The position numbers and the translations under genes were made by a program. From an uncultured Actinomycetota bacterium (GTDB lineage: Bacteria; Actinomycetota; Humimicrobiia; Humimicrobiales; Humimicrobiaceae), in the NCBI GenBank assembly GCA_964392345.1, contig CAYMPQ010000001.1, positions 5,114-69,113 of the forward strand: a stretch of DNA of 64,000 nucleotides, read 5' to 3'. Positions 13,356-30,068 of the stretch are shown here, piece after piece. The first letter of the stretch is position 1. Each line of letters starts with the position of its first letter. The notes under the pieces were generated by a model, which did no database searches, had not been told where the DNA came from, and saw nothing but the letters and a program-made list of their open reading frames with translations.

Positions 13356-14240
13356 ATGACGAAAAAAACATCAATTGGAGGATGGGCGTATATATGGGGC
13401 GGCTACGAGGAAAGCCCTATCCCTTTTAAAGATGTTGTTGAAAGGCTTTCTGTCCTTGGATTTGACGGTATTGAAATGGCTGCATTTCCTCCGCACCTGG
13501 AACCTAATACAAAAGAGAAGCGCAAAGAAATTAAGAAAATGCTGGATGATTATAAGTTAGGCGTGTCCGGCCTGGCTGCACCATTTCCATCACCGGCAAC
13601 ATCAAAGAAGAGTGATTATCTGGATGCGGTTAAAGCAAATCTTGAAATATGCAGCGACCTTGATATTCCCAAGCTCAGGGTTGACACTGTTGACCCGCCA
13701 ACTGGAATACCGGGCGGCATGGATTACGAGACCTGTTTTTCTAAAGTAGCCGAAGTCTGGAATGATGCTTCTGAAATATGTATGAAAAATAATGTGAAAC
13801 TTATATGGGAATTTGAGCCTGGTTTTTTATTTAACAAGCCAGGTGAAGTAGTCAGGATGGTTTACAAAGTGGAACACTCAAACTTTTCAATATTGTACGA
13901 TTCCTGTCATGCGCATATGTGTTCAGTAGTGGGTGCGCGGCAGTTAGGCAAAAAGGAGACGCTTCCAGGAGGCGTGGTTCAATTTACATATATGTTAACA
14001 GGGAAAATTGGACATATCCATTTAATTGATTCAGATGAGACTTTGCATGATGGTGATACAAGCACACATGCTCCTCTTGGAACAGGGGTACTGGATTTTG
14101 ACAAGATTATTCCAGCAATACTGGAAGCCGGATATACTGATGAGTGGTGGACAATTGACCTGTGCTTCTGGCCAAAAGCTTTGGATGTAACTGAAGACAA
14201 TAAAAAGTATCTTGACAAATTGATTAAAAAATTTGGATAA
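13356..14240 (+). CDS. Sugar phosphate isomerase/epimerase (xylose-isomerase-like TIM barrel)
   Basis: 294 aa; LGFDGIEMAA, WEFEPG, DSCHAHM and IHLIDSD pattern of AP_endonuc_2 TIM barrels. Confidence 0.7.
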   Translation: MTKKTSIGGWAYIWGGYEESPIPFKDVVERLSVLGFDGIEMAAFPPHLEPNTKEKRKEIKKMLDDYKLGVSGLAAPFPSPATSKKSDYLDAVKANLEICSDLDIPKLRVDTVDPPTGIPGGMDYETCFSKVAEVWNDASEICMKNNVKLIWEFEPGFLFNKPGEVVRMVYKVEHSNFSILYDSCHAHMCSVVGARQLGKKETLPGGVVQFTYMLTGKIGHIHLIDSDETLHDGDTSTHAPLGTGVLDFDKIIPAILEAGYTDEWWTIDLCFWPKALDVTEDNKKYLDKLIKKFG

Positions 14241-14308
14241 ATAAAAAGAAGCTGAAAGTTATTATAGCCGGGTTGGATGTTTGCTGTAATTTAAATTAAA
14301 AAGGAGGA

Positions 14309-15391: not shown

Positions 15392-15451
15392 TACCTGTTT
15401 TGTTAAAAATTAATAAGTTTTGTTGATGTAAATATAATAGTATAAATTTAT

Positions 15452-16579: not shown

Positions 16580-16621
16580 CGTATATTTAATTGTTTTAAT
16601 AAGCTTGATTGGAGGTAGCGA

Positions 16622-17740
16622 ATGTCTGGTAACAAAATAAAGGTTGCAGTAATTGGCCTTGGCTTTGGTGCAGACTTTATCCCAATTTATCAAAACCATC
16701 CTGATTGTGAGTTGTATGCAATATGCAGAAGAAATAAGGAAAAGTTAAATGAATGCGGTGATAAATATGGCATTGAGCGAAGGTTCACTGACTACAGGGA
16801 TATTTTAGAAATAGATGAGGTTGATGCAATCCATATCGTAACACCAGTAAAAAGTCATGCCGAGTTAGCTATCAATTCGCTTAATGCAGGTAAACATGTT
16901 GCCTGCACGGTTCCAATGGCTACCACAGCTGAGGAATGCATGGAGATAGTTAAGGCAAGAAGAAAAGCAGGAAAAGTTTATATGATGATGGAAACTTCTG
17001 TTTATACTAAAGAATTTCTATACGTTAAAGATCTTGTTGATAGCGGCAAATTAGGGAAAATTCAGTTTTTGCGCGGCTCGCATCAGCAGGATATGGAAGA
17101 TTGGGGCGGGGCATGGCCCGGCTTTCCTCCCATGCATTATGCTACGCATGCTGTCAGCCCCTGTGCTGCTCTTGCCAGAGCTGATGTAGAATCTGTATTT
17201 TGCTTTGGATCAGGGAAAATACGCGAAGAATATATAAAAAAATATAACTCTCCTTTTGCGATTGAAACAACTCTTATAAAGTTTAAGAATTCCGATCTGG
17301 CAGCTGAGGTTACAAGGTCTCTTTATGATACTGTCCGCCAGTATATTGAAAGTTTTGATGTTTATGGAGGCAAACTCTCATTTGAATGGAACAGGTTAAG
17401 CGATGAAGACCCTACTCTGTTTACAGGAAAAGAAGATGCTGTAAGGGTAGAAGTACCTGATACAGGTAATATGCTGCCGAAGGAAATTGCCAGGTTCACA
17501 AGAGCTGAAGATGTGTTGGATGATGAAGAAAAAAAACATCTTTCTTTTGTACAGGGATCTGGACATGGGGGTTCTCACCCACATATGGTACATGAGTTTA
17601 TAAGGGCAATTGTTGAGAAAAGAGACTCAGCAATAGATGTTGAGACTGCAGCAAACTGGACATGTACTGGTATATGCGCCCACGAGTCAGCTATGAGCGG
17701 AGGGGAAAGAGTATATTTGCCAGATTTTTACAATATTTAA
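16622..17740 (+). CDS. Gfo/Idh/MocA-family oxidoreductase (second copy)
   Basis: N-terminal Rossmann KVAVIGLGFGADFIP, 372 aa, family-typical layout. Confidence 0.8.
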   Translation: MSGNKIKVAVIGLGFGADFIPIYQNHPDCELYAICRRNKEKLNECGDKYGIERRFTDYRDILEIDEVDAIHIVTPVKSHAELAINSLNAGKHVACTVPMATTAEECMEIVKARRKAGKVYMMMETSVYTKEFLYVKDLVDSGKLGKIQFLRGSHQQDMEDWGGAWPGFPPMHYATHAVSPCAALARADVESVFCFGSGKIREEYIKKYNSPFAIETTLIKFKNSDLAAEVTRSLYDTVRQYIESFDVYGGKLSFEWNRLSDEDPTLFTGKEDAVRVEVPDTGNMLPKEIARFTRAEDVLDDEEKKHLSFVQGSGHGGSHPHMVHEFIRAIVEKRDSAIDVETAANWTCTGICAHESAMSGGERVYLPDFYNI

Positions 17741-17775: not shown

Positions 17776-17814
17776 CTATCCCAAATGACTTGTACTGTAA
17801 GTTATTCGGGATAG
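17776..17814 (+). promoter_or_regulatory. Hairpin (ctatccc ... gggatag, 7-bp perfect arms) enclosing an imperfect dyad acttgtactgtaagt, between the oxidoreductase and FGGY kinase genes
   Basis: Inverted repeats read directly; could be a weak terminator or an operator for one of the locus regulators. Confidence 0.25.
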
Positions 17815-17840
17815 TATTATTTTATGGAGTTTTTTTAAAT

Positions 17841-19358
17841 ATGAGTTTGCTTGGGATAGACATAGGAACAACAGGATGCAAGGCAGTTATATTTAACAGA
17901 TATGGGGAAATACTGTCAGCAGAATACAGAGAGCACCCGCTGATCCATCCAAGAGAAGGGTGGGTGGAAATTGACCCCGGCCTTATCTGGAACAATGTAA
18001 AAGATCTTGTCAGAGATGCAAGCCAGAAGATAAAAAAAGACAAGATTAAAGCATTTAGCGTATCCTGCCAGGGAGAGACTACGGTTCCGGTAAGCAGGGA
18101 TGGAAGTGCTCTATACAATGCAATAGTTACATTTGACAGCAGAACAGAGAGCCAGTACAGGTTCTGGAAGAGAAGACTGGGAGAAAAAAAGATATTTAAA
18201 ATTACCGGAATGCCACTTCACCCAATGTATTCTGTAAATAAAATAATGTGGATAAGGGAAAACCTAAAAGATGTTTACAAGAGAGCATATAAGTTTTTAT
18301 GTTTTGAAGATTACATATTTTCAAAGTTTGGTCTCACCCCAACCATAGATTATACCCTTGCTGCAAGGACAATGGCATTTGATATTAAAAGCAAGAATTG
18401 GTCTGAAGAAATACTTAAAGAAGCAAAAATAAACGTAGATATGCTCTCAGAAGTTAAACCATCAGCAGAAATTGTTGGAGAGATAAATTCAAAAATTTTA
18501 TGTGATATTGGAATTGATGGAAACGTGTTTGGGGTAACAGGCGGCCACGATCAGGCATGCGGAGCATTTGGGGCCGGTATTACTGAAGAGGGCACTGCAA
18601 TGAATGCAACAGGTACATCAGATGTGATAACCCCGATTTTAAATAAAATTTACACAACTGATAGCATGCTGGGCAACAATTACCCCTGCTATCCATATGT
18701 GGTTAAGGATAAATATATGACAATAACATTTAATCTAACAGGCGGTCTTCTTCTCAGGTGGTACCGGGATAATTTTTGTTATGAAGAAAGGGCAGCTGCA
18801 GAAAGAGAAGGCAGGGATGCTTATGATGTGATAACCAGCAAGATGCACTCCAGTCCTGCTAACATATTTATACTTCCCCATTTTGTAGGAAGCGGGACTC
18901 CTTATCTTGATTCAAAATCCAGGGGTGCTGTTTTGGGACTTGACTTGGAAACAAACAAAGCAAAAATAGCAAGAGCAATACTGGAAAGCAATACTTATGA
19001 TTTAAGGCTAAACTTAGAAAAATTGGAAGAGTCAGGAATTACTGTAGACAAGATAATTGCAATAGGCGGGGGAGCAAAATCACACGAATGGTTAAAAATA
19101 AAATCAGATATATTAAATAGAAAGATACTGACTCTAAAGAATCCGGAGGCCGCAAGTCTTGGAGCAGCAATGCTTGCCGGGCTAGCGGTTGGAGAATATA
19201 GCTCTTACAAAAATGCAGTGGAAAATACTGTAAAAGAAGATAAAATGTATTGTCCTGATAGTAACCACAGCAAGCAATATGACATAAGATACTCAATATA
19301 TAAGGACATATACAGCAAAAATAAAAATTTACTGCATAGAATTAGTAAATTGGATTAG
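17841..19358 (+). CDS. FGGY-family carbohydrate kinase (xylulokinase/ribulokinase-like). Probable start MSLLGIDIGTT; the track ORF begins 51 nt earlier at 17790.
   Basis: FGGY N-terminal GIDIGTTGCKAV motif, C-terminal IGGGAKS; RBS ggag 8 nt before the 17841 ATG. Confidence 0.8.
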   Translation: MSLLGIDIGTTGCKAVIFNRYGEILSAEYREHPLIHPREGWVEIDPGLIWNNVKDLVRDASQKIKKDKIKAFSVSCQGETTVPVSRDGSALYNAIVTFDSRTESQYRFWKRRLGEKKIFKITGMPLHPMYSVNKIMWIRENLKDVYKRAYKFLCFEDYIFSKFGLTPTIDYTLAARTMAFDIKSKNWSEEILKEAKINVDMLSEVKPSAEIVGEINSKILCDIGIDGNVFGVTGGHDQACGAFGAGITEEGTAMNATGTSDVITPILNKIYTTDSMLGNNYPCYPYVVKDKYMTITFNLTGGLLLRWYRDNFCYEERAAAEREGRDAYDVITSKMHSSPANIFILPHFVGSGTPYLDSKSRGAVLGLDLETNKAKIARAILESNTYDLRLNLEKLEESGITVDKIIAIGGGAKSHEWLKIKSDILNRKILTLKNPEAASLGAAMLAGLAVGEYSSYKNAVENTVKEDKMYCPDSNHSKQYDIRYSIYKDIYSKNKNLLHRISKLD

Positions 19359-19487: not shown

Positions 19488-21011
19488 ATGAAATATATAC
19501 TGAGTCTTGACATTGGAACAACTTCAACAAGAGCAATAATAATTGATGAGGATGGAGCCCTTATATCATCAAGCACCAAAGATTACGAGCTTTACACGCC
19601 TAAGCCGGGATGGGCGGAACAGGACCCAATTGATTGGTGGGGTGCATCTGTGTTTACCATAAAAGAAGCAATTAAAAGTTCAAATATTTCTCCAAAGGAT
19701 ATCTCTGCCATAGGGCTCTCGGGGCAGATGCACGGGAGTGTCTTTTTAGACAGAAATGGAGAAGTAATTAGGCCTGCAATACTCTGGTGTGATCAGAGGA
19801 CAAATGATCAATGCAATAAGATTTACAAAATATTTGGCAGGCAAAATTTTATAAAATTATCATACAACAAAGCTCTCCCGGGGTTTACAGCACCCAAGAT
19901 ATTGTGGCTGGAAGAGAAAGAACCTCAAAACTACAAAAAGGTATCAAAAATACTCCTTCCAAAGGATTATATAAGGTACAGACTATCAGGAAAGTATGTA
20001 ACTGAAGTGTCAGATGCATCTGGAACAATACTTATGGACATTGCCAAAAGGTGCTGGTCACATGAAATATTGGATGGACTGGATATAGACAGAGATTTGC
20101 TTCCAGATGTATACGAGTCAACAGAAATAACATCATATGTAAGTAAATCGGCTTCATCAGCAACCGGTCTTACAGAAGGCACGCCCATTGCCGGAGGAGC
20201 AAGTGACAATGCAGCAGGAGCAGTTGGCTCAGGTATTATAAGGGAAGGTCTCCTGTCGGATTCTATAGGAACAAGTGGTGTCGTGTTTGCCTACAGCAAA
20301 AAACCATTATATGACAGTCAGGGAAGGGTACACTCATTCTGTCATGCTGTGCCGGGCAGGTGGCACCTTACAGGAGTAACACTGTCTGCAGCAGGGTCCC
20401 TAAAATGGTATTATGAAAATTTTGGCCCAAGCAGGAAAATTGAAGACATGTATCCGAAAATAAAAGGCTACAACCTGCTAAACAAAGAAGCGGAAAGCAT
20501 TCCTGTTGGCTCAGACGGACTTATATTTTTACCATATCTGTCAGGCGAGAGAACTCCTCATGCTGATCCTTATGCCAGAGGTGTATTTTTTGGACTGTCT
20601 TATTTGCACACCCAGAATCATTTTGTACGCTCAGTTATGGAAGGTGTGGCATTTAGCCAGCTTGATTGTCTTTCTCTTATGAGAAAGCTAAATATTGTAT
20701 CAGACAAAATAGTCCTTTTTGGCGGTGGAGCAAAAAGCAAAGTATGGAAACAGATTATTTCAGATGTAATGAATGCAAAAATTGTAACACTGAATGTCGA
20801 AGAAGGGCCGGCTTACGGGGCAGCTCTTATTGCCGGGGTTGGATGCGGAATATACAGCAGCGTAGAAGAAGCAGCCGACAAGACAATAAAGGAAGCAAGC
20901 CAGATTGATCCCATAAGGGAAAATGTAAAAAAATATGAAAAGTTATATGGAATATACGGGTCTCTTTACGCAGACTTAAAAGATGATTTTGAGAAGTTAG
21001 GCCACATTTAA
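19488..21011 (+). CDS. xylB: Xylulokinase-like FGGY carbohydrate kinase
   Basis: LSLDIGTTSTRAIII, GWAEQDP...WW and FGGGAKS are typical of XylB; 507 aa. The symbol is tentative (family-level similarity). Confidence 0.7.
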   Translation: MKYILSLDIGTTSTRAIIIDEDGALISSSTKDYELYTPKPGWAEQDPIDWWGASVFTIKEAIKSSNISPKDISAIGLSGQMHGSVFLDRNGEVIRPAILWCDQRTNDQCNKIYKIFGRQNFIKLSYNKALPGFTAPKILWLEEKEPQNYKKVSKILLPKDYIRYRLSGKYVTEVSDASGTILMDIAKRCWSHEILDGLDIDRDLLPDVYESTEITSYVSKSASSATGLTEGTPIAGGASDNAAGAVGSGIIREGLLSDSIGTSGVVFAYSKKPLYDSQGRVHSFCHAVPGRWHLTGVTLSAAGSLKWYYENFGPSRKIEDMYPKIKGYNLLNKEAESIPVGSDGLIFLPYLSGERTPHADPYARGVFFGLSYLHTQNHFVRSVMEGVAFSQLDCLSLMRKLNIVSDKIVLFGGGAKSKVWKQIISDVMNAKIVTLNVEEGPAYGAALIAGVGCGIYSSVEEAADKTIKEASQIDPIRENVKKYEKLYGIYGSLYADLKDDFEKLGHI

Positions 21012-21047: not shown

Positions 21048-21109
21048 TTAACTATAGTTAAAAAATATTTTGTTTGACTAAAAGACTTTTTTTATATAAT
21101 ATAGTCAAA
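21048..21109 (+). promoter_or_regulatory. Promoter/operator region: 14-bp perfect palindrome ttaactatagttaa, then an 8-bp inverted repeat (tttgacta ... tagtcaaa) bracketing a TTGACT-N15-TATAAT promoter-like element upstream of the SorC-family regulator gene
   Basis: Palindromes and hexamers read directly from the sequence. Confidence 0.35.
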
Positions 21110-21149
21110 TGTTCATAGAGTAAACAAATGTGCAATATTAAGAAATAAT

Positions 21150-22094
21150 ATGGCCTGGACTGAAAAAAAGAAACTTATATCTAAAATATCAAGACTCTAC
21201 TATATCAGCAACTTAACCCAGCAAGAAATTGCAAATAAACTAAATTTATCAAGAACAAAAGTCTCGAGATATTTGGATATGGCGAGAAAAGAAAGAATAG
21301 TTGAGGTAAAAATTAATTCGCCCGATGAAAGCTATGAAGAGTTAGAGTGTGCAGTAGAAAAAAAATATAAGATAAAAGAATGTGCTATTGTCCCTTCTTG
21401 CGAAAGCAAAGAAGAAACTTTAAAAGAGATTGCTAAAAAGTTAAGCAATATATTTGATAGGATATTAAAGGATGGGGATTATTTAGGAATTGGCTGGGGG
21501 ACTTCATTAAAAGGCATAGCAGATTATCTTGACGTCAGCAGAAATATAAGCATAAAAGTAATTCCTATAATTGGGGGGCTTGGGAAAGTTGGCACAGGAG
21601 TTCATACAAATTCAGTTGCAAGGGCTGTAGCTGATAAAATTGGAGGGGTTAGCTATATGATTAATGCTCCTGCAGTTTTGGATAGCAAAAAAGCAAGAGA
21701 AGTCATTGAAAATGAGGGCAGCACCAGAGAAATAATAAATATGGCAGATCAAATTAATACAGCCATGGTAGGAATGGGCGATATCAGTTCTGAATCTACA
21801 CTGGTTAAGACTGGAAATTTTAGTGCAGAAGAATTTAATTACTTGAGCAGTTTGGGAGTAGTCGGAGATGTAAATTTAATTTTTATAAATGAAGATGGAG
21901 AACACATAAAAAGCAAGACAGACGATAGAATTATCAGAATTTCAGCAAGTAAAATTAAGAAGATTAAAAATAAAATAGGAGTTGGCTTTGGGGACAAAAA
22001 AGTAAAAGTTATAGAAGGAGCTCTAAAGGGCAAATTCATAAATATTTTATTAACTGATGAAGATACAGCAAAAAGTATAACCAGAGGGGATTAA
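21150..22094 (+). CDS. SorC/DeoR-family (CggR-like) sugar-phosphate-binding transcriptional regulator
   Basis: N-terminal HTH (ISNLTQQEIANKLNLSRTKVSRYLDMARKE), 314 aa, C-terminal sugar-binding domain with the GIGWGTS motif typical of SorC/CggR. Confidence 0.8.
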   Translation: MAWTEKKKLISKISRLYYISNLTQQEIANKLNLSRTKVSRYLDMARKERIVEVKINSPDESYEELECAVEKKYKIKECAIVPSCESKEETLKEIAKKLSNIFDRILKDGDYLGIGWGTSLKGIADYLDVSRNISIKVIPIIGGLGKVGTGVHTNSVARAVADKIGGVSYMINAPAVLDSKKAREVIENEGSTREIINMADQINTAMVGMGDISSESTLVKTGNFSAEEFNYLSSLGVVGDVNLIFINEDGEHIKSKTDDRIIRISASKIKKIKNKIGVGFGDKKVKVIEGALKGKFINILLTDEDTAKSITRGD

Positions 22095-23123
22095 ATGGGG
22101 AAGATTTTAAATAAAAAAAGCAAATACATAAATATTGATGGCTACAGGATAGAAGATAAATTCTCCAACTTGGAAGATGCTGTAAAGATAGAAATGCTAA
22201 AAAAAATGTATCAGATAAGGCATTTTGAGAATGAAACCGAGCAATTCATTATAAGGGGTGCAATCCACGGTACATGCCATCTTTATACTGGTGAGGAGGC
22301 AACTGCTGTAGGTGCAAATTATGCTCTGGATAGCGGTGATTATATTACTTCAACCCATAGGGGTCATGGCCATTGCATCGCAAAAGGGGCAGACATGAAT
22401 ATTATGATGGCAGAGCTATTGGGCAAGAAGACAGGATATTGTAAGGGTAAAGGTGGGTCAATGCACATAGCTGATGTTGGCTCAGGAAACCTTGGCGCAA
22501 ATGGAATAGTTGGGGGAAGCATTGGCATTGCTACAGGAGCAGCACTTACCTGTAAGATGAAGAAGAATGGGAAGATTGTAGTATGTTTCTTCGGAGATGG
22601 TGCAGCCAATCGTGGAATATTTCATAGCTCCATTAATATGGCTTCTATATGGGGGCTTCCTATAGTTTACCTTTGTGAAAATAATGTCTATGGAATGTCA
22701 ACACCGGTAAAGGAAGCATTTAATATAGAAAAGATATCAGATAGAAAATTTGCTTACGGAATTGACGGGCTTACAATTGATGGCAATAATCTGGTTGAGG
22801 TATTTAATACAGTTTCACATTTTGTAAGAGAGTGCAGGGCTGGAAGAGGTCCAGTTTTGATTGAATGCCTAACTTACAGGTGGAAGGGCCATTCTAAAAG
22901 TGATGCTCAGGTTTATAGAACAAAGGAAGAAGTAAAGCAGTGGATTGACAAAGACCCTATCAAAAGATATAAGAAAGTTCTAATTGACCGAAAGATACTA
23001 ACTGAAAAAGAAGATAGAGATTTAGAAAAAGAAGTTGTAGGCCAATTAGAGAAAGCAACTAAATTTGCCAAGGAAAGCCCCTTTCCGGAACCTTCAGAAG
23101 TTGAAGAGGATGTTTATGCATGA
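22095..23123 (+). CDS. TPP-dependent 2-oxoacid (acetoin/pyruvate-type) dehydrogenase E1 component, alpha subunit
   Basis: TPP motif GDGAANRG...N, HxxGHG motifs; 342 aa; start codon directly abuts the regulator stop (TAAATG). Confidence 0.85.
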   Translation: MGKILNKKSKYINIDGYRIEDKFSNLEDAVKIEMLKKMYQIRHFENETEQFIIRGAIHGTCHLYTGEEATAVGANYALDSGDYITSTHRGHGHCIAKGADMNIMMAELLGKKTGYCKGKGGSMHIADVGSGNLGANGIVGGSIGIATGAALTCKMKKNGKIVVCFFGDGAANRGIFHSSINMASIWGLPIVYLCENNVYGMSTPVKEAFNIEKISDRKFAYGIDGLTIDGNNLVEVFNTVSHFVRECRAGRGPVLIECLTYRWKGHSKSDAQVYRTKEEVKQWIDKDPIKRYKKVLIDRKILTEKEDRDLEKEVVGQLEKATKFAKESPFPEPSEVEEDVYA

Positions 23124-23171
23124 AAAATAGTATTATTACAATTTATAATTTGTGGAGGAATTTTTACTAGG

Positions 23172-24164
23172 ATGAGAGAATTAACATACCTTGAAGCAAT
23201 AAGAGAAGCAATGCAGCAGAAGATGAGGGAAGACAGTAGTGTATATCTTATAGGAGAAGACATAGCAGAATATGGGGGAGCATTTGGTGTGACTGTAGGG
23301 ATGCTTTCTGAATTTGGGAAAGAAAGGGTAAGAAATACTCCAATTTCTGAAGCAGCCATAATAGGAGTTGCCACTGGAAGTGCTGTTACAGGGATGAGGC
23401 CAATAGCTGAGATAATGTTTTCAGATTTTGTAACTATAGCTATGGATCAAATTGCAAACCAGGCTGCAAAAATAAGGTATATGTTTGGAGGAAAAGCTAA
23501 AGTGCCCCTGGTAATCAGAACAGCAGGAGGTGGTGGGACAGGTGCGGCTGGCCAGCATTCACAGAGTCTTGAAGCACTGGTTGCTCATATTCCAGGTTTA
23601 AAGGTTGTTATGCCTTCTTGTCCATATGATGCAAAAGGACTGTTAGTTGCATCAATTAATGACAATAATCCGGTTGTATTTATAGAGCATAAAATGCTTT
23701 ATAAAAATAAAAAGTGTATCCAACATGTACCTGAGGAAATGTATGAAATTCCACTGGGCAGCGCAGATACAAAAAGGCAGGGAAGCGATATCAGCATAGT
23801 TGCTACTTCTTTCATGGTTCAAAAGTCAATTGAGGCAGCACAAGTACTGGCAGAAGAAGAAAACATAGAATGTGAAATAATAGATTTGAGAACATTGCGG
23901 CCGCTTGATATAGACACTGTACTGGATTCAGTTAAAAAAACCGGGAGGCTCCTGTGCGTAGAAGAAGCATGCAGTTTCGGAGGTTTTATGGGAGAGGTAG
24001 CAGCAGAGGTGGTAGAAAAAGGGTTTGATTACCTCGATGCTCCTATATGCAGAGTGGCGGGAAGAAACTGTCCGGTTCCATATAGTCTTGTTTTAGAACA
24101 GGAAATGATCCCAGGTGTTGACAGAATTAAAAAAGGCGTACTTGATATTCTGCATAAGGTTTAA
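23172..24164 (+). CDS. 2-oxoacid dehydrogenase E1 component, beta subunit (transketolase-like)
   Basis: E1-beta transketolase-like pyrimidine-binding domain ([17 protein letters not shown], dimer core); 330 aa. Confidence 0.85.
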
Positions 24165-24308
24165 TTGATGTTGCAGCGCATATTATACAGATTGGGCACA
24201 ATTTTAATTAATGCGCAATTTTAATTGATAACTCTGTTAATTAATTATAATATAAGTCCACGAGTTTTATTTTTTGGTTTTAAGTTTATTTGTTAGGAGG
24301 ATAAAGTA

Positions 24309-25511
24309 ATGCATGAAGTAATAATGCCTAAGTTAGGTCTGACCATGGAAACAGGGACGATTGAGAAATGGCATAAGAAAGAAGGAGACAAGATAGAGCA
24401 GGGAGATATACTCTTTGAAGTAATGACTGATAAAGTATCCCTGGAAGTAGAAGCATATAATTCCGGTGTTTTAAGAAAAATATTAAGAGGCGAAGGCGAA
24501 GAGGTTCCAGTAACAGAAATAGTAGCTTATATTGGCGAGAAGGATGAGGAGATTCCGTCTGGAGCCGGGAAGGCTGCTCCTGAAAAAGAGCAGGTAGCTG
24601 AAAAGAGTGAAAAAAAAGAAGCAGTTGAAGAAAAAGTTAAAGAAACTGCTGTTTCCAAAGAAAAAAGAGTTAAAATATCGCCTATTGCTAGAAAAATTGC
24701 CGAGAGCAAAAATATAGATATATCCAAAATTACAGGGTCCGGCCCCGGAGGAAGAATTGTAAAAGAAGATGTAATGGCTTTTTCAGAGACAGCTTCTGCT
24801 ATGCCAAAAGGAGAGATTGCAGTAAAATCTTCAACTCCGCTTAAAGGAATGAGAAAAGTAATAGCAGAGCGTATGAGCTATTCCAAGACCAACATTCCCC
24901 ATACTGTACTGAATGCTGTAGCCGATGCTACAGCCCTTGTGAACTTGAGGGAAAGAATAAAAGATAAAATATCATCTGTGTATGATGTAAAAATTACTTA
25001 TACAGATTTCTTGCTAAAGGCTTGCAGTGCAGCCCTAAGGGAGAGTATAGAAGTAAATTCATCTCTTCAAAATGAAAACCATATTATATATGATAATGTG
25101 AATATTGGACTTGCAATGTCTGTCAGCGGAGGGCTTATTGTTCCAACTATTTACGATTGCGATAAGATGAGCTTGATTGAAATTGCAAGGGAAAGAATAA
25201 AGTTAGTAGAGAAGGCAAAAAAAGGCGAGTTGAAGCTTGAAGAGATAACAAACGGTACCTTTACCCTGACTAATTTGGGCATGTTCGGAATAAGATCTTT
25301 TTCAGCAATAATCAATCCTCCTCAGGCAGCTATACTTGCAGTAGGTGAAATTTATGAAACACCTGCAGTAGTCAATGGAAAGATTGAAGCAGGATCAGCC
25401 TTAGAACTATCTCTTGCATGTGACCACAGGATTGTAGATGGAGCTGTTGGAGCTAAATTTTTACAGAAAGTTGTAGAATTGATTGAAAGACCTGAAATCC
25501 TTGTAATTTAA
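24309..25511 (+). CDS. Dihydrolipoamide acyltransferase E2 component (lipoyl domain, peripheral-subunit-binding domain, catalytic domain with DHRIVDGA)
   Basis: Lipoyl-lysine context EVMTDKVSLEVEA, PSBD ISPIARKIA, catalytic DHRxxDG; 400 aa. Confidence 0.9.
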   Translation: MHEVIMPKLGLTMETGTIEKWHKKEGDKIEQGDILFEVMTDKVSLEVEAYNSGVLRKILRGEGEEVPVTEIVAYIGEKDEEIPSGAGKAAPEKEQVAEKSEKKEAVEEKVKETAVSKEKRVKISPIARKIAESKNIDISKITGSGPGGRIVKEDVMAFSETASAMPKGEIAVKSSTPLKGMRKVIAERMSYSKTNIPHTVLNAVADATALVNLRERIKDKISSVYDVKITYTDFLLKACSAALRESIEVNSSLQNENHIIYDNVNIGLAMSVSGGLIVPTIYDCDKMSLIEIARERIKLVEKAKKGELKLEEITNGTFTLTNLGMFGIRSFSAIINPPQAAILAVGEIYETPAVVNGKIEAGSALELSLACDHRIVDGAVGAKFLQKVVELIERPEILVI

Positions 25512-25570: not shown

Positions 25571-25981
25571 TTGTTCATTAACATTAATTGTAAAATGAAA
25601 GACGAAGAATCAAAAATAATACTGTATTGCATAAACTGCGATGAAGAAGTAGCCCACTCTGTGTATTATACCGGCAGTTATTTGCGAAGCGTAAAATGTG
25701 ACAGGTGCGGCAAGAAAATAGAAATAGACAGACGCCACCTCAGGGCTGTTTTTGCTGAAGATTTTATAGACAGAATTTTAACAAAGCCTCACAGGATGAC
25801 TGAAGATGCGAAAAAAGCACTTGCAATTCTTGTGCCATTTTTTCCAAAGAGATTGATTAAAGAGCCTCTTGCAGTAATTAAAGATATTTGTGAAATTTTA
25901 AAAAGAGATAATGGAAGAAAGCAAGAGCGCAGAGGTAAAAAAATACATAAGGCAAAAAGTAAAAAAGAAAACAGCAGCTAA
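25571..25981 (+). CDS. Hypothetical zinc-ribbon protein with a strongly basic C-terminal tail (likely true start MKDEESK at ~25595)
   Basis: CxxC(x17)CxxC (CINCDEE...CDRCGKK) followed by K/R-rich tail RKQERRGKKIHKAKSKKENSS; no family recognised. Confidence 0.4.
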   Translation: MFININCKMKDEESKIILYCINCDEEVAHSVYYTGSYLRSVKCDRCGKKIEIDRRHLRAVFAEDFIDRILTKPHRMTEDAKKALAILVPFFPKRLIKEPLAVIKDICEILKRDNGRKQERRGKKIHKAKSKKENSS

Positions 25982-25985
25982 GATT

Positions 25986-26714
25986 TTATTTTAATACAGG
26001 AAGGCCAAATACCTCATTAAATTTTATCAGTATTTGTTCTTTGACATCGTTTATTGGAATATCTTTATTTAATATTTTTTGCATAGAAGTCTGGCTGTAT
26101 TTTTTTAATCCACAGGCTATTATGTTATCAAAGTAGCTTAAATCAACATCAACATTCAGGGAAAAACCATGCATCGTGATCCATCTTTTGATACGCACAC
26201 CGATGGAAGCAATTTTATAGTTTTCAACAAACACACCTCTATGCTTGTCAATTCTTGTGCCGCATATACCATAATGGTTTAATACTTCAATTATAAGCTG
26301 TTCAAGATTATAAACATATAAAGACAAATCTTTTTTTACATAAGATAGGTTTAAAATTGGATAACAGACAATTTGGCCGGGACCATGAAACGTTATATCA
26401 CCGCCGCGGTTGGATTGCACGAGCTCTATGTTTTGCTCTTTAAGCTTGGTATTGCTTACCAGTAAGCTATCTAATTTTTTATTATTTCCTATGGTTATAA
26501 CTGGTATATGTTCCAGGAGCAGGATTACTCCGCAGCAGTTACTGAGCTTGACTTGATCAAAAAAATATGTTTGCAGGTTATATGCATCATTGTAAGGTAT
26601 TATGCCTAAGTCCAGGTATAATATTTTACTGCTGTTTGCCTGCAGTCTGTTGATTATTTTTTTATCTTTAATAATATTATTTACGACTGAGTTATTTTGT
26701 TTTAAAATTTGCAT
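25986..26714 (-). CDS. lipB: Lipoyl(octanoyl) transferase LipB
   Basis: RGGDITFHGPGQIVCYP matches the LipB RGGxxTxHGPGQ motif; 242 aa; convergent with the E2 operon and adjacent to lpd. Confidence 0.75.
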   Translation of the reverse strand: MQILKQNNSVVNNIIKDKKIINRLQANSSKILYLDLGIIPYNDAYNLQTYFFDQVKLSNCCGVILLLEHIPVITIGNNKKLDSLLVSNTKLKEQNIELVQSNRGGDITFHGPGQIVCYPILNLSYVKKDLSLYVYNLEQLIIEVLNHYGICGTRIDKHRGVFVENYKIASIGVRIKRWITMHGFSLNVDVDLSYFDNIIACGLKKYSQTSMQKILNKDIPINDVKEQILIKFNEVFGLPVLK

Positions 26715-26787
26715 GATTCTACATATTATACTATAGATACATAATTTACTAATGCACTAATGCTGTATGGAAGGGAGATATTGGGTA

Positions 26788-28179
26788 ATGGAAATAAAAA
26801 GAGTAGATTTGGCAATAATTGGGGCTGGGCCCGGAGGATATGTGGCAGCTATAAGGGCGGCTAAGCTGGGAATAAAATCAGTGGTTATTGAAAAAGAACA
26901 CATAGGCGGAGTTTGCCTTAATTGGGGATGCATGCCTACTAAAGCGCTTACTACCGTCGCACATTTAGTAGAGAACATTGAAGGAGCCAATCAGTTTGGT
27001 ATTGGCGTTTCAGATTATGGTATTGACTTTAAAAAGGTAATGCAGAGAAAGGACAAGCTGATAAGCTCGTTAAGAGGGGGCCTGCAGTCTCATTTTAGCA
27101 AAAATAAAATAGAGCTTATAAAAGGAAAAGGAAAATTAACCGACACGGATAAAATACTAGTTGAATGCGAGAATGGTGACAATATTGAGGTTATTTCCAA
27201 AAATATTATCGTAGCTACCGGTTCTTCTCCAAGCCAGATCCCACCATTTGATTTTAAAGAAGAAGGTGTGCTGAACAATAGGGGGATACTATCACTTAAA
27301 GAAATACCGAAGGAGCTTCTAATTGTAGGCGGAGGAGTAGTAGGGTGCGAATTTGCAAGTATTTTTAATACTTTTGGCAGCAGTGTAACAATAATTGAAG
27401 TTCTTCCCAGGATACTCTCTACTGAAGATGAGGATATATCAAAGTTGGTAAAAGAAAATTTTGAAAAAAACGGAATAAAAATACTGACAAACTGCAGCAT
27501 AGATGAAATTAAAAAAGTAGAAGGCAGGTATAACTGTAAGGCAAATAATGGTGAAAGTATAACTGTGGATAATATTTTGGTTTCAGTGGGAAGGAGGCCA
27601 AATTCAACAGATATCGGAATTGAAGAAGCAGGAATTAAAACAGAAAGAGGATATATAAAAGTCGACTCTCACCTAAAAACAAGCATTGATAATATATATG
27701 CTATTGGAGATGTGATAGGCGGATATCAATTAGCTCATGTTGCATCGAAAGAAGGAAAGATAGCAGTAGAAAATATATCAGGGAAAGAGAGTAAAATGAA
27801 CTATAGAGTTGTTCCATGGGCCATCTTTACCTCTCCTGAAATTGGAGCAGTCGGGCTTACTGAAAATCAGGCTAAAGAGAAAAATATTCAGGTTAACTGT
27901 GGCCGGTTCCCGTTTTCTGCAAGCGGAAAAGCTTTTGTTATGGGGGAGGCAAGCGGCTTTGCAAAAATTGTAACCGACAAGGAAACAGGAGAGGTGCTCG
28001 GAGCTCAGATAATTGGTCCTCGTGCTTCTGATCTTATACACGAGGTTGCTGTAGCTATGAATGGAGAGCTGTCTGTAGATTATATTGCCGATACCATACA
28101 TTCCCATCCAACATTATCAGAGGCTGTTATGGAAGCAGCAGAAGACTGCTTTGGGATAGCAACTCATGCCAGCAAATAG
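26788..28179 (+). CDS. lpdA: Dihydrolipoyl dehydrogenase (E3). Probable start MEIKRVD; the track ORF starts 21 nt earlier.
   Basis: FAD motif IIGAGPGGY, redox-active disulfide GGVCLNWGCMPTK, NAD motif IVGGGVVGCE, C-terminal HAHPTLSE; RBS ggaaggga. Confidence 0.9.
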   Translation: MEIKRVDLAIIGAGPGGYVAAIRAAKLGIKSVVIEKEHIGGVCLNWGCMPTKALTTVAHLVENIEGANQFGIGVSDYGIDFKKVMQRKDKLISSLRGGLQSHFSKNKIELIKGKGKLTDTDKILVECENGDNIEVISKNIIVATGSSPSQIPPFDFKEEGVLNNRGILSLKEIPKELLIVGGGVVGCEFASIFNTFGSSVTIIEVLPRILSTEDEDISKLVKENFEKNGIKILTNCSIDEIKKVEGRYNCKANNGESITVDNILVSVGRRPNSTDIGIEEAGIKTERGYIKVDSHLKTSIDNIYAIGDVIGGYQLAHVASKEGKIAVENISGKESKMNYRVVPWAIFTSPEIGAVGLTENQAKEKNIQVNCGRFPFSASGKAFVMGEASGFAKIVTDKETGEVLGAQIIGPRASDLIHEVAVAMNGELSVDYIADTIHSHPTLSEAVMEAAEDCFGIATHASK

Positions 28180-28194: not shown

Positions 28195-28980
28195 ATGATA
28201 AAACTAATAGTCACGGATGTTGACGGCACGCTTCTTGATGGCGATTCAAATCTTCCCGAATTAAACAAAAAAGCTATTCTTGCATGCCTTGATGAGGGGA
28301 TAGGGGTGATTTTGGCAACTGGCAAATCAATTGATTCAGTATTTCCAATCATTAAATTTTTAAATTTAAAGCTTCCCCAGATAACTATGAACGGAGCAGT
28401 TGTAGTTAATAAAGATTTAAAGATAATAAATTCTGTAAAAATAAGACCAGATGACTACTTTGATGTGATAAGATCAATAAAAGAAAAAGGGTACTCGCCA
28501 CTTGCAGCGCTGGCAGGAGGAGGTATTTTTTATGAAAAATATCATCCTGACATGAAATATATTGAGAGAATCGGGGAGAGATTAATTAAAATTGATAGTA
28601 TTGAAACTGCTTATTTTTCAAAAAATTCAGTTGACATAAATGTTCCCATAAAGGAGGACGATCCTCTTGATTGCTACCTCAGGAAAAAGTTTTCAAGTAA
28701 ACTGGAAATTGTAAGGGCAGGTAAATATTTTTTTGATATTTTAAATTTGAATGCTACCAAAGGCAATGCGCTGTGCAGTATTGCCGAAATTTTAAATATT
28801 AAAAGAGAGGAGATAGCTGCATTTGGTGACAGCTATAACGACCTGAGCATGTTCAAAGAAGCTGGGCTTAAGATTGCAGTGAAGAATTCTAACAGCAAAG
28901 TACTTGAAGCGGCAAATATAATAACAGACGAGAATTATAAATCTGGTTTTGGCAAGGCGATATACGAGCACATATTGTAA
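28195..28980 (+). CDS. HAD-superfamily hydrolase, Cof-type (IIB) sugar phosphatase-like
   Basis: Motif I IVTDVDGTLLD, Cof-type cap, C-terminal FGDSYNDLSMF motif; 261 aa. Confidence 0.8.
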   Translation: MIKLIVTDVDGTLLDGDSNLPELNKKAILACLDEGIGVILATGKSIDSVFPIIKFLNLKLPQITMNGAVVVNKDLKIINSVKIRPDDYFDVIRSIKEKGYSPLAALAGGGIFYEKYHPDMKYIERIGERLIKIDSIETAYFSKNSVDINVPIKEDDPLDCYLRKKFSSKLEIVRAGKYFFDILNLNATKGNALCSIAEILNIKREEIAAFGDSYNDLSMFKEAGLKIAVKNSNSKVLEAANIITDENYKSGFGKAIYEHIL

Positions 28981-29098: not shown

Positions 29099-29467
29099 AT
29101 GGCTGCAAATAATTCAATAGCTCTAACCAGAAAAGTAGTTATTACTTCTGAAAAAACTATAGCTAAAGAAGATTTCATCAAAAAGATATTAGAAATCACT
29201 GATGGCATACTTCTTTATCTTAAAAACAATGGCTGCAAGAAGTTAGGTCATTTAAAATTAATATCTACTACTAATGGTGAAGACTATCTCCAGATCAGCG
29301 TAGTTGACACAGCCAAAAAACCGGCAATAAAGGGCATGCTAAAAAAAACTTTTGCAAAGATCAAACTTACTTTAAATATTATAGAATTTGGTGTTAGCAA
29401 AGAGGATATTGTTAATAAAATTGATGAAGAACTGAAAAATATACAGGATTATTTTAATAGCGTGTAA
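29099..29467 (+). CDS. Hypothetical protein (122 aa), no recognisable domain
   Basis: ORF only; moderately K/E-rich; no motif recognised. Confidence 0.35.
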   Translation: MAANNSIALTRKVVITSEKTIAKEDFIKKILEITDGILLYLKNNGCKKLGHLKLISTTNGEDYLQISVVDTAKKPAIKGMLKKTFAKIKLTLNIIEFGVSKEDIVNKIDEELKNIQDYFNSV

Positions 29468-29480: not shown

Positions 29481-30068
29481 TTAGTTGCTATAGTAAATCC
29501 TAAAATCAGAAGGTAAATATTTTAAATGTATAAATTTTGAAATACTGCTGTAATCTATGGCCAGCATATCTTCCGGGTCAATATATTTTCCATCATATAT
29601 TATTCCAAAGTGCAAATGATATGAAGAGCTGGATGGGTCATCCATGGCACCAATAGATGCAATAGCTTCTCCTTGCTGAACAGAAGTTCCTACTGGAACA
29701 TATATTTGCAGTAAATTTAGGTAAGTAGTTCTTATATTTTTATTATGCTTTATCACCAAAGTCTTTCCTCCTGTTGGAGAAAAACCAATGTAGCTGACCA
29801 CGCCATTTGCTGCTGCGATAACTTTTTGCCCGTATCTTCCCTCTATATCAATTCCTGTGTGTCTTCTGCTGGTTTCTTTTTTGTAATCCCAGTAAACTTG
29901 TCTGAATTTAACTACAATACTGCCATTAAGCGGCATAATAAAAGGAGACTTACAGTAGGAATATAGCGGTACTGGCTGGCAGATTAATATTAAAAATGAA
30001 AAGAGAAAGAAAAGAAATATCCCGGTTACACATTTTTTATGTATGCAAATTAAATTAACAAAAAACAT
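29481..30068 (-). CDS. M23-family metallopeptidase (LytM/lysostaphin-like), N-terminal membrane anchor
   Basis: HTGIDIEGRYGQKV...ANG and HLHFGIIYDGKYIDP are M23 HxxxD / HxH zinc motifs; N-terminal hydrophobic segment. Confidence 0.8.
   Translation of the reverse strand: MFFVNLICIHKKCVTGIFLFFLFSFLILICQPVPLYSYCKSPFIMPLNGSIVVKFRQVYWDYKKETSRRHTGIDIEGRYGQKVIAAANGVVSYIGFSPTGGKTLVIKHNKNIRTTYLNLLQIYVPVGTSVQQGEAIASIGAMDDPSSSSYHLHFGIIYDGKYIDPEDMLAIDYSSISKFIHLKYLPSDFRIYYSN

Follow-up and report, generated by a model that had tools for sequence, protein, structure and literature searches.

The pairing of a SorC-type regulator with a thiamine-diphosphate (TPP)/lipoyl 2-oxoacid-dehydrogenase-type complex described here is real and conserved, and a counterpart in Clostridioides difficile has been studied before. 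The window, that is, the whole 64,000-nt stretch of DNA that we analysed, comes from an uncultured, low-G+C, Humimicrobiia-like member of the Actinomycetota, and it probably carries an autoregulated operon resembling acoRABCL of C. difficile. The features of the locus are the following, with the basis of each call in brackets.

21074–21079, plus strand: TTGACT, the -35 box of the promoter predicted for the operon (promoter scan)
21095–21102, plus strand: predicted -10 region, either TATAAT at 21095–21100 or TAATAT at 21097–21102 (17-nt spacer)
21106–21137, plus strand: predicted conserved operator of 32 nt, CAAATGTTCATAGAGTAAACAAATGTGCAATA (fixed-register alignment across loci)
21150–22094, plus strand: SorC/DeoR(B. 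subtilis)-type transcriptional regulator, 314 aa (PF04198 and helix-turn-helix)
22083–22089, plus strand: Shine-Dalgarno sequence AGAGGGG of E1-alpha, within the 3' end of the regulator gene (direct sequence reading)
22095–23123, plus strand: E1-alpha, TPP-binding, Aco-like, of the SorC-linked clade (PF00676, identity gradient, tree)
23172–24164, plus strand: E1-beta (PF02779 and PF02780)
24225–24253, plus strand: promoter-like site TTGATA-17-TAATAT, a possible internal promoter (consensus match only)
24309–25511, plus strand: E2 dihydrolipoamide acyltransferase (one lipoyl, E3-binding and catalytic domains)
25595–25981, plus strand: 'bh protein', a small zinc-ribbon protein travelling with the operon (synteny across related loci)
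25986–26714, minus strand: LipB octanoyl/lipoyl transferase, divergent from E3 (PF21948; TIGR00214, 165 bits, above the cut-off of 83.55)
26767–28179, plus strand: dihydrolipoyl dehydrogenase (E3), preceded by an upstream region of its own (TIGR01350, 569 bits, above the cut-off of 408.8)
28195–28980, plus strand: Cof-type HAD-IIB phosphatase, starting 15 nt past E3 (same place in about 14 related loci)

As the sequence-only reading had stated, the stop codon of the regulator (22092–22094) directly abuts the ATG of E1-alpha, the 0-nt junction being read GAT TAA ATG, and E1-alpha, E1-beta and E2 follow on one strand. The unit extends beyond positions 21048–25511, as the bh protein, lipB, E3 and HAD phosphatase genes also belong to it. 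A terminator scan revealed no intrinsic terminators between the operon genes, and no Rfam elements were found in this part of the window or in the related loci with longer regulator–E1 spacers. E1-beta and E2 are separated by an AT-rich spacer of 144 nt, and spacers of roughly 80–190 nt occur at this place in most related loci. The regulator gene is not preceded by a good Shine-Dalgarno sequence. Directly upstream of it are two FGGY kinase genes (17790–19358 and 19488–21011), again as had been described; the second clears the XylB equivalog cut-off and lies on the same strand, 138 nt before the regulator.

The regulator combines an N-terminal helix-turn-helix with a PF04198 sugar-binding domain (E 4.9e-59); among solved structures, it is closest to B. 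subtilis DeoR, Klebsiella SorC and LsrR. DeoR, which controls the dra-nupC-pdp operon, is the best-scoring characterised relative (NF053881, 217 bits; PDB 8r7y, E 5.7e-40), but the window regulator remains below the 420-bit equivalog cut-off and the target genes are unrelated. In B. subtilis DeoR, the lysine of the QLKGG motif forms a Schiff base with deoxyribose-5-phosphate; at this position the window regulator has isoleucine (PIIGG, as in SorC). CggR is a SorC-family repressor encoded by the first gene of its own central-carbon (gapA) operon; it binds direct-repeat operators and is released by a sugar phosphate. The window regulator is likewise encoded first in the operon it would control, and its homology to B. 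subtilis CggR is weak but significant (PDB 2okg, E 4e-11), although the sequences are distant and CggR targets glycolytic genes rather than a 2-oxoacid-dehydrogenase-type complex. The autoinducer-2 system LsrR/LsrK also places a SorC-family regulator beside FGGY kinases, and at loci L008–L010 an Rbs/Lsr-like ABC transporter is present as well. However, our regulator scores 157 bits against the LsrR cut-off of 486, the window kinases are xylulokinase-like (214–240 bits with the AI-2 kinase model versus a cut-off of 528), and LsrF and LsrG are not present at the window.

Among uncultured Humimicrobiia-like Actinomycetota, the regulator is linked to E1 in all 42 informative loci. The two genes overlap or lie within 3 nt of each other in 25 of these, while in 10 an AT-rich spacer of 60–170 nt separates them, and thus tight coupling is not universal. 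The order regulator, E1-alpha, E1-beta, E2, bh, lipB (minus strand), E3 and, in part, HAD phosphatase is kept at 51–76% regulator identity, and in Priestia and Brevibacillus, too, bh protein homologues are encoded beside the SorC-linked E1 operons. The sugar island with xylB, on the other hand, neighbours the module only in near-identical contigs of this organism; in most relatives, PTS EIIC-GAT and DUF3786 genes take its place. It had been proposed that the complex performs the terminal step of the island pathway. Since the island does not travel with the module and contains no operator site, we find this proposal unsupported. The same evidence bears on the idea that the regulator serves the xylulokinase and the island, its contact with E1-alpha being incidental. 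Here, the regulator's position close behind xylB on the same strand is outweighed by the synteny: the genes upstream vary from locus to locus, but the regulator accompanies E1 in all related loci, and the island encodes its own LacI- and ROK-type regulators. Such an arrangement is thus highly improbable, being effectively refuted by synteny.

The predicted operator has the architecture AATGTTCA-N7-TGCACAATTGTGCA. In the window, it consists of half-site AAATGTTCA (21107–21115), a 5-nt spacer (21116–21120) and a second element, TAAACAAATGTGCA (21121–21134), whose family consensus is the palindrome TGCACAATTGTGCA; two TGT(T/G)CA motifs lie 19 nt apart within the operator (direct repeat D1). The DeoR operator has a similar architecture, in which a palindrome is combined, near the promoter, with a direct repeat of one of its halves. 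The predicted operator of the window starts within about 5 nt of the sigma70-like promoter and covers the expected start of transcription, with 12 nt between its end and the regulator ATG. In related loci, TTGACT or TTGAAA is found at an equal distance from the operator, and TATAAT is kept 4–8 nt upstream of it. With a position weight matrix, the site scores 31.8 bits, or 28.6 bits when left out of training, while no other independent site in the 64 kb exceeds 8.3 bits and the maximum over 20 shuffles is 14.3. It is the sole site of its type in the window, with none in the upstream sugar island and none ahead of E3. In 42 of the 47 loci, a site of at least 20 bits lies no farther than 120 nt ahead of the regulator, and L019 may be added to these (about 43 of 47).

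The sequence-only reading had pointed to two other palindromes upstream of the regulator. Both exist, namely TTAACTATAGTTAA at 21048–21061 and an inverted repeat with the arms TTTGACTA (21073–21080) and TAGTCAAA (21102–21109), but a role as operators is not supported for them. Markov simulations of the 138-nt spacer (19% G+C) produced a perfect 14-mer palindrome in 7% of trials and an inverted repeat with 8-nt arms in 33%, so that both are near chance expectation, and neither is kept at orthologous loci, even where the regulators are 66–76% identical. The -35 box TTGACT, which is conserved, lies within TTTGACTA, and TAGTCAAA does no more than overlap the beginning of the conserved operator.

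The closest precedent is the acoRABCL locus of C. difficile (CD0035–CD0039), described by Wetzel et al. (2023, bioRxiv 10.1101/2023.07.28.551048), in which CD0035 was found by RT-PCR to be co-transcribed with acoABCL. There, as in the window, a PF04198 SorC/DeoR-type regulator comes first, on the same strand and directly upstream of E1-alpha, E1-beta and E2, and a sigma54 element is absent. Full-length identity to the window protein is 32% for the regulator (AcoR/CD0035), and E1-alpha is 54% identical. The pairing of such an operon with a SorC-type regulator, which had been regarded as out of the ordinary, is therefore not unprecedented. The two loci differ in that C. difficile acoL (E3) comes right after E2, whereas in the window the bh protein gene and the divergent lipB intervene; the regulator–E1 gap is 37 nt in C. 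difficile versus 0 nt here; a scan of the C. difficile locus with the Humimicrobiia operator matrix gives no site; and the hosts differ in phylum and ecology.

In our tree, E1-alpha falls into a clade with 97% support together with E1s from C. difficile, Priestia, Brevibacillus and rhizobia, each member of which adjoins a SorC-type regulator, sugar/polyol transporters or both. The sister group of this clade is the classical, sigma54-controlled AcoA. E1-alpha is 48–56% identical to members of the SorC-linked clade, 41–47% to AcoA linked with sigma54 regulators and butanediol dehydrogenase (an E. faecium plasmid, Paracoccus); in the same alignment, the identities to pyruvate dehydrogenase are 38% for an alphaproteobacterial pdhA and 27% for Bacillus PdhA. 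The question raised earlier of whether it clusters with standard pyruvate dehydrogenase can thus be answered: judged by its sequence, E1-alpha is not a standard pyruvate dehydrogenase but belongs to a distinct clade tied to SorC-type regulators and sugar transport. For E1-beta, identity is 57–63% to Bacillota SorC-linked homologues and 46% to classical Aco.

It is nevertheless possible, if rather doubtful, that the complex is a housekeeping pyruvate dehydrogenase, with the SorC-type protein matching acetyl-CoA formation to sugar flux in a CggR-like manner through a glycolytic or pentose-phosphate intermediate. IMG names both E1 proteins pyruvate dehydrogenase (E1 alpha and beta); E1-beta passes the pyruvate dehydrogenase E1-beta subfamily model NF006667 (382 bits, cut-off 321); the closest solved relative is human pyruvate dehydrogenase E1-alpha; and the locus lies within core synteny conserved across the lineage. 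The promoter of C. difficile responds to pyruvate, and in L045 a second operator-like site precedes a PFL-like glycyl-radical cluster, another possible route from pyruvate to acetyl-CoA. Yet E1-alpha is closer to AcoA and to the SorC-linked clade than to PdhA, and it misses the TIGR03182 cut-off of 393.85, if by just 28 bits (366 bits). Moreover, E2 falls short of all pyruvate and 2-oxoglutarate dehydrogenase E2 equivalog cut-offs, and several genomes hold extra SorC–E1-alpha/beta cassettes without E2, which look like substrate diversification.

A genuine acetoin (or diacetyl) dehydrogenase using a SorC-type instead of a sigma54-type regulator appears unlikely to us. The sister-group position of the classical systems speaks for it, as does the C. 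difficile orthologue, annotated and studied as acoABCL, with its acetoin-responsive promoter. Classical acoABCL/acoXABC operons have the same four-component TPP/lipoyl architecture, but they rely on a separate sigma54-dependent activator, AcoR; the window likely encodes a repressor within the operon. Among the Pfam-scanned ORFs, covering almost the whole window, there was no butanediol dehydrogenase, acetolactate synthase/decarboxylase or AcoX, and no sigma54 activator or PdhR-type gene either, which bears out the earlier expectation of a different type of control. In C. difficile, an acoA mutant showed unchanged acetoin consumption. Finally, the neighbours of the clade in three phyla are sugar/polyol transporters, not butanediol genes.

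These neighbours make it tempting to suppose that SorC-linked E1s cleave a sugar-derived alpha-hydroxyketone phosphate (candidates being a 1-deoxy-ketose phosphate, such as 1-deoxy-D-xylulose-5-phosphate, or a pentulose-5-phosphate) into acyl-CoA and a triose or aldose phosphate, the substrate or its precursor being the effector. The clade recurs beside glucitol-type PTS and GutM (Priestia, R. rhododendri, Nitratireductor), other PTS genes (Brevibacillus, most Humimicrobiia) and sugar ABC transporters with kinases (S. americanum, L008–L010, the window). FGGY kinases, Dak, split transketolase and rpe-like genes (the last in L008, L009, L066 and L045) also adjoin it. A DXR-like (PF21135) oxidoreductase, from a family with two uncharacterised branches, DLO1 and DLO2, is encoded directly upstream of E1-alpha in all three rhizobial loci and near the L064 and L049 modules, and the HAD phosphatase after E3 would also fit, as would the sugar phosphates that are the typical effectors of the regulator family. 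Against this, the basis is entirely gene neighbourhood, most Humimicrobiia loci have no adjacent kinase or DXR-like gene, the transport genes form separate transcription units, and the literature searched offers no biochemical example of an E1 acting on a substrate of this kind. We therefore regard this scenario, too, as improbable.

Returning to an autoregulated operon of the acoRABCL type, we assume from the operator position that the regulator is a repressor rather than an activator; CitI, of the same family, is a citrate-responsive activator. An oligomer of the regulator would bind the repeated half-sites and block RNA polymerase in the manner of B. subtilis DeoR and CggR, until released by a small metabolite. 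Speaking against this reading, acetoin and pyruvate repressed rather than induced the aco promoter in C. difficile (Wetzel et al. 2023). A phosphorylated sugar intermediate would be the most likely effector here. A pentulose-5-phosphate, e.g., xylulose-5-phosphate, is the leading but weak candidate, and as such a guess, hinted at by the upstream xylB, the rpe-like neighbours, a 29-bit operator site in front of rpe in L066 and weaker sites (14.6–22 bits) ahead of an Rbs-like ABC/SDR/FGGY operon in L007–L010. A single transcript would yield little regulator, given its poor ribosome-binding site, and much E1 from the strong AGAGGGG, unless an internal promoter in the regulator gene drives E1, as may be the case. 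A further, internal promoter may serve E2, and E3 with the HAD phosphatase may have a promoter of their own. The complex itself would oxidatively cleave pyruvate or an acetoin-like alpha-hydroxyketone, as candidate substrates, and pass the product through acyl-lipoyl-E2 to acyl-CoA.

The region between 21 and 29 kb of the window is occupied by the following genes:

21150-22094 (+), regulator of 314 aa (HTH at the N-terminus, PF04198 'sugar-binding' domain)
22095-23123 (+), E1-alpha
23172-24164 (+), E1-beta
24309-25511 (+), E2 (domains: one lipoyl, E3-binding, catalytic)
25595-25981 (+), 'bh protein' (the NCBI name), a zinc-ribbon protein of 128 aa
25986-26714 (minus), lipB
26767-28179 (+), E3
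28195-28980 (+), Cof-type HAD phosphatase

Inspection of the ORFs and their domains bore out the gene calls of the sequence-only reading together with its TAAATG junction: the TAA of the regulator gene directly abuts the ATG of E1-alpha (GAT TAA ATG; a 0-nt junction). A strong ribosome-binding site for E1-alpha, AGAGGGG, lies within the final codons of the regulator gene, which has no good ribosome-binding site of its own. No terminator or known RNA element was found in the module region of the window; likewise, Rfam gave no riboswitch or other RNA match either in this region or in the longer regulator-E1 spacers of related loci. That the genes abut and no terminator intervenes suggests co-transcription of the regulator with E1 and E2. 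The AT-rich spacer of 144 nt between E1-beta and E2 (24165-24308) includes a promoter-like match at 24225-24253, and the start of E2 is preceded by a strong AGGAGG; most related loci have a spacer of ~80-190 nt at this place. The only Rfam match in the window, unrelated to the module, is a T-box leader (RF00230, 109.8 bits, 32968-33255, +) located 5' of a gene for a PLP-dependent enzyme (33473-34834, PF00291). On the 3' side of the operon there are a 122-aa ORF without a family match (29099-29467, +) and a divergent M23 peptidase gene (29481-30068, -), with synteny kept across the lineage. Sugar island aside, the remainder of the window is of a housekeeping nature (rho, prfA, SHMT, V/A-ATPase).

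The regulator has the HTH plus PF04198 architecture of SorC and B. subtilis DeoR-type regulators, with PF04198 matched at residues 64-310 (E 4.9e-59) and HTH matches at residues 15-53, and it aligns over its full length with the structures of DeoR, SorC and LsrR. Its GWGT(S/T) loop is invariant across the family alignment, and, judging from the CggR and DeoR structures, this loop may bind phosphate. It is also important to note that CitI, another PF04198 family member, senses citrate, so the family is not limited to sugar phosphates. As for deoxyribose-5-phosphate, the protein did not qualify as a DeoR equivalog (NF053881, 217 bits vs. a cut-off of 420). Its PIIGG motif is as in SorC, with isoleucine aligned to the lysine that forms the Schiff base with deoxyribose-5-phosphate in DeoR; because of this substitution, a deoxyribose-5-phosphate mechanism is unlikely. 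An LsrR-like response to AI-2 was rejected as well: the regulator reached 157 bits vs. 486 for NF011947, and the adjacent FGGY kinases scored 214-240 bits vs. 528 in the AI-2 kinase model.

Upstream of the regulator gene, two palindromes had been proposed as control elements. Both exist, but they arise close to chance level (in 7% and 33% of simulations for a 138-nt spacer at 19% G+C), and neither was conserved in any of 47 related loci or three closer metagenomic relatives; on both counts they were rejected as operators. The 47 loci came from GTDB genomes, all of uncultured Actinomycetota (Candidatus Hydromicrobium, Humimicrobiaceae and similar). What these loci do conserve, in a fixed register, is TTGACT or TTGAAA as the -35 box, together with TATAAT; 4-8 nt further comes a half-site, A(A/T)TGTTCA, then a spacer that is short and variable, and finally the palindromic element TGCACA(A/T)TTGTGCA, the right half of which repeats the first half-site 19 nt downstream. 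The copy in the window is the candidate operator:

21106-21137, candidate operator, CAAATGTTCATAGAGTAAACAAATGTGCAATA

The second of the two palindromes takes its left arm from the -35 box, and its right arm runs into the first bases of this operator. With a weight matrix built without the window site, the operator scored 28.6 bits, the next independent site in the 64 kb scored 8.3 bits, and the maximum in shuffled windows was 14.3 bits. Of the 47 loci, 42 have a site of at least 20 bits no more than 120 nt ahead of the regulator gene, with a median distance of 18 nt to the start codon; a further one of these comparison loci, L019, has the site as well. The weight-matrix scan gave no further operator sites in the window, including the sugar island and the E3 promoter. 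Exact matches to the operator pattern in metagenome contigs numbered five, none of them from a related locus. Half-sites that recur in this way at or across the promoter are what might be expected of an operator for a SorC/DeoR-type regulator. In Bacillota and rhizobial loci no Humimicrobiia operator rose above background, the lone 17-bit match in Brevibacillus falling into a PTS IIC/PRD-regulator intergenic region rather than beside the E1 operon.

Several other sites deserve a comment. Weaker operator-like sites (TGCACATTTGTTCA, 14.6-22 bits) occur upstream of the regulator in four comparison loci: L007 (6967-6998), L008 (2468-2499), L009 (2214-2245) and L010 (23-54). Those of L008-L010 precede, ~7 kb upstream, an operon for an Rbs/Lsr-like binding protein, an ABC ATPase, a permease, an SDR and an FGGY kinase. 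The L007 site lies ~3 kb upstream of the regulator, just before two Zn-dependent alcohol dehydrogenase genes, for which a butanediol dehydrogenase identity was rejected (no equivalog match). The acoR promoter of C. difficile (locus L054, 4920-5021) consists of TTGACT-17-TATAAT and then two ATTGAA motifs ~20 nt apart (GATTGAACAAATGT...TAATTGAAAAGC). Its layout resembles the promoter/operator of the window, although the Humimicrobiia weight matrix gives the C. difficile site no score.

E1-alpha and E1-beta come after the regulator in all 42 related loci with enough sequence. The regulator-E1 gap is at most 3 nt, or an overlap, in 25 loci, 4-40 nt in seven and an AT-rich 60-170 nt in ten, with no conserved sequence in the longer spacers. 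In most loci there follow E2, the gene for the zinc-ribbon protein, lipB on the minus strand, E3, in some cases HAD, and then the conserved 122-aa ORF and the M23 peptidase gene. Cassettes of regulator, E1-alpha and E1-beta without a downstream E2 were observed in L007-L009, L019, L023, L049 and L066, which makes the regulator and E1 the tightest unit. Two of them, L019 and L049, belong to one MAG; presumably, several cassettes in one genome share one E2/E3 core.

In most loci the upstream neighbours of the module are an unknown gene, PTS EIIC-GAT in divergent orientation (sometimes with EIIA) and DUF3786. The upstream sugar island of the window, 20 kb long, is composed of LacI- and ROK-type regulators, an ABC transporter, an FGGY kinase, a bona fide xylulokinase, four xylose-isomerase-like TIM barrels, two GFO/IDH/MocA oxidoreductases and a Zn-ADH. 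Only the window's own, nearly identical contigs have xylulokinase and the island beside the module. Thus, the suggestion that E1/E2 performs the terminal step of the island pathway is unsupported, since upstream genes vary among loci, the island does not travel with the module and it has no operator. Within the island (6538-17740, especially 12080-13273), we also observed two MalK-type ATPases and a 397-aa ORF without a Pfam match; the best match of its Zn-ADH was scyllo-inosose 3-dehydrogenase, at a sub-threshold score.

What, then, is the enzyme? IMG labels the E1 proteins as pyruvate dehydrogenase (PDH). Neither E1-alpha nor E2 passes the curated PDH equivalog models: E1-alpha scored 366.2 bits vs. 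393.85 for TIGR03182 (mitochondrial/alphaproteobacterial PDH), and E2 scored 332 bits vs. 445 for TIGR01349 and fell under all PDH E2 equivalogs. E1-beta (NF006667, 382 bits vs. 321) and E3 (TIGR01350, 569 bits vs. 408.8) pass, but these passes do not discriminate, because both models are common to related complexes. A tblastn search of annotated plasmid and chromid records showed graded similarities to E1-alpha.

Identity of comparison proteins to the E1-alpha of the window (multiple alignment)
Priestia, Brevibacillus, C. difficile: 54-56%
Rhizobiaceae / Nitratireductor: 48-49%
E. faecium, Paracoccus and Haladaptatus (classical aco clusters that have sigma54 AcoR plus butanediol dehydrogenase or AcoX): 41-47%
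Devosia (alphaproteobacterial pdhA): 38%
Bacillus PdhA (B. velezensis) and BCKDH: 27%

E1-beta identities followed the same gradient. In a neighbour-joining tree (19 sequences, 320 columns), Humimicrobiia, Bacillota and rhizobial E1-alpha composed one clade in 97 of 100 bootstraps, leaving out classical AcoA, PDH and BCKDH. With 54% identity and a place in the same clade, the window protein is an ortholog of C. difficile AcoA. Clustering with standard PDH, which would have spoken against the sequence-only reading, was not seen: the bona fide PDH E1-alpha of Devosia and B. velezensis fell outside the clade. That the complex is nevertheless a housekeeping PDH under flux control is possible, if on the unlikely side.

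We inspected six non-actinobacterial members of this SorC-linked clade. All six have sugar-related neighbours, and five have an adjacent 'sugar-binding transcriptional regulator'. PF04198 was directly confirmed for three, namely the regulators of C. difficile, R. rhododendri and S. americanum.

Gene order around E1 in non-actinobacterial clade members
C. difficile: regulator, E1a, E1b, E2, lpdA
Priestia aryabhattai: divergent gutM and glucitol PTS, then pdhA, E1b, E2, lpdA, regulator
Brevibacillus laterosporus: PTS genes and PRD-type regulator, then E1a, E1b, E2, lpdA, regulator
Rhizobium rhododendri: gutM, glucitol PTS, ptsP, regulator, DXR-like oxidoreductase, E1a, E1b, E2
Sinorhizobium americanum: sugar ABC transporter and kinase, then regulator, DXR-like gene, E1a, E1b, E2, lpdA
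Nitratireductor: DXR-like gene, E1a, E1b, E2, HAD hydrolase, glucitol PTS; no SorC-type gene in the 7-kb flanks

Outside the clade, sigma54 activators and butanediol dehydrogenases are encoded in the loci of E. faecium and Paracoccus, and a TrmB-type regulator in that of Thermus. The earlier remark that a SorC-type regulator is unusual for this enzyme class holds. The window regulator shares ~25-32% identity with the E1-linked regulators of other phyla (32% over the full length with CD0035 of C. difficile), no better than with DeoR or SorC. Identity at this level does not demonstrate common descent of the regulator-enzyme pair across phyla, and E1 operons in different phyla may have recruited SorC-family regulators independently.

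The arrangement itself is not unprecedented. Our literature search on SorC with acetoin or pyruvate dehydrogenase, on Humimicrobiia metabolism and on DXR-like proteins with acetoin returned only one directly relevant work, a preprint on C. difficile acoRABCL, which has the same regulator-first order. There, CD0035 (assigned to the DeoR family) was co-transcribed with acoABCL by RT-PCR; expression was pH-dependent and fell with acetoin and pyruvate, there was no evident control by sigma54 or CcpA, and an acoA mutant consumed acetoin as the wild type did (Wetzel et al. 2023). In both organisms a SorC-type regulator comes first, on the same strand and directly 5' of E1-alpha. Unlike in C. difficile, E3 of the window is located 1.25 kb past E2, beyond the bh-protein gene and the divergent lipB. 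Overall, the window operon is a C. difficile-type, SorC-regulated aco-like operon, of a known but poorly characterised kind. In the plasmid collection, about a dozen C. difficile records of ~100 kb (L054, H3-H14) include acoRABCL (CD0035-CD0039), a region whose normal place is the chromosome. These records, several of which are labelled 'single cell', may be misassigned chromosomal fragments.

The missing acetoin phenotype of the C. difficile acoA mutant argues against a true acetoin dehydrogenase, as does the fact that no sigma54-dependent AcoR, butanediol dehydrogenase or AcoX was found among the Pfam-scanned ORFs, which cover nearly the whole window. We consider an acetoin dehydrogenase unlikely.

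We would also like to comment on the accessory genes that recur around such modules:

Window 25595-25981 (+), 'bh protein'
L055 2503-2832 (-), 'bh protein'
L056 11915-12265 (+), 'bh protein'
L057 6613-7938, DXR-like gene (rhizobial locus)
L058 6682-8007, DXR-like gene (rhizobial locus)
L061 5525-6844, DXR-like gene (rhizobial locus)
L064 2557-3828, DXR-like gene
L049 7343-8566, DXR-like gene
L008 9030-9644 (-), rpe-like gene
L009 8925-9566 (-), rpe-like gene
L066 6500-7117 (-), rpe-like gene
L045 2233-2835 (+), rpe-like gene

In nearly all Humimicrobiia loci, the 'bh protein' gene separates E2 from lipB, and both Priestia and Brevibacillus have homologues with 33-36% identity next to their SorC-linked E1 operons. 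The protein displays CxxC...CxxC and then an invariant RRHLR..FAEDFIDRIL..KPHR, without a Pfam or NCBIfam match; its AlphaFold model (pLDDT 55) was too poor for a fold search. It may be an accessory factor of the complex. A DXR-like oxidoreductase (PF21135, DRL_cat) is encoded directly 5' of E1-alpha in all three rhizobial loci, and a 38% identical homologue near the regulator-E1 module in two Humimicrobiia loci; branches DLO1 and DLO2 of this family are uncharacterised (PMC3847144). Four sublineages have genes of the ribulose-phosphate-3-epimerase (rpe) family alongside the module. The rpe gene of L066 is directly preceded by a 29-bit operator (7144-7175), and the regulator's own promoter site there is degenerate. 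In L064, the closest relative, a split transketolase gene and the DXR-like gene adjoin the module. In L045, E1-alpha is cut to a 164-aa remnant (1736-2230), and a second operator-like site (20 bits, 4755-4786) precedes genes for a radical-SAM activase, DUF362 and a PFL-like glycyl-radical enzyme, the latter split into two ORFs (4844-10076). The last case suggests that the regulon can include another C3-to-C2 enzyme.

Some of these contexts hint at pentulose phosphates: xylB upstream in the window, the rpe-like genes, the L066 operator before rpe, the weaker sites of L007-L010, and the split transketolase and DXR-like genes of L064. The L045 locus, with its truncated E1-alpha and second operator-like site before the activase and PFL-like cluster, hints at the pyruvate node. 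Cleavage of a sugar-derived ketose phosphate by the complex is in our opinion improbable. A more specific speculation, and admittedly a long shot, extends to the whole SorC-linked E1 clade (the window, 'Aco' of C. difficile, Priestia, Brevibacillus and rhizobial plasmids). Its members would be neither pyruvate nor acetoin dehydrogenases but an unrecognised lipoate-dependent 'ketose-phosphate dehydrogenase', splitting a sugar- or polyol-derived alpha-hydroxyketone phosphate oxidatively to acyl-CoA and an aldose or triose phosphate. The candidate substrate would be 1-deoxy-D-xylulose-5-phosphate, supplied by a kinase or PTS together with the DXR-like oxidoreductase; the same metabolite or its precursor would release the SorC-type repressor, and the 'bh protein' would serve as an accessory factor.

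For the mechanism of repression, the family members DeoR and CggR serve as analogues. By this analogy, an oligomer of the regulator would sit on the repeated half-sites overlapping the transcription start and repress its own operon until a metabolite lifts the repression. A single transcript would then yield a low level of regulator and a high output of E1. E2 might be served by the promoter-like match (24225-24253) in the 144-nt spacer preceding it, and E3-HAD by their own upstream region.

Taken alone, the window adds an actinobacterial case of a regulator-plus-enzyme arrangement previously examined only in C. difficile, along with a candidate operator that is precisely defined, something missing from the work on C. 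difficile. The comparative pattern is of wider value: an E1 clade of its own across Actinomycetota, Bacillota and Alphaproteobacteria, found in the company of sugar/polyol uptake genes, DXR-like oxidoreductases and the conserved 'bh protein'. This pattern leads to a testable and potentially more novel hypothesis on an E1 clade operating in sugar/polyol contexts. Since its sole genetically studied member, that of C. difficile, does not act like an acetoin dehydrogenase, the question can be tested with a few purified proteins, and the outcome would bear on how thousands of 'pyruvate/acetoin dehydrogenase' annotations are read.
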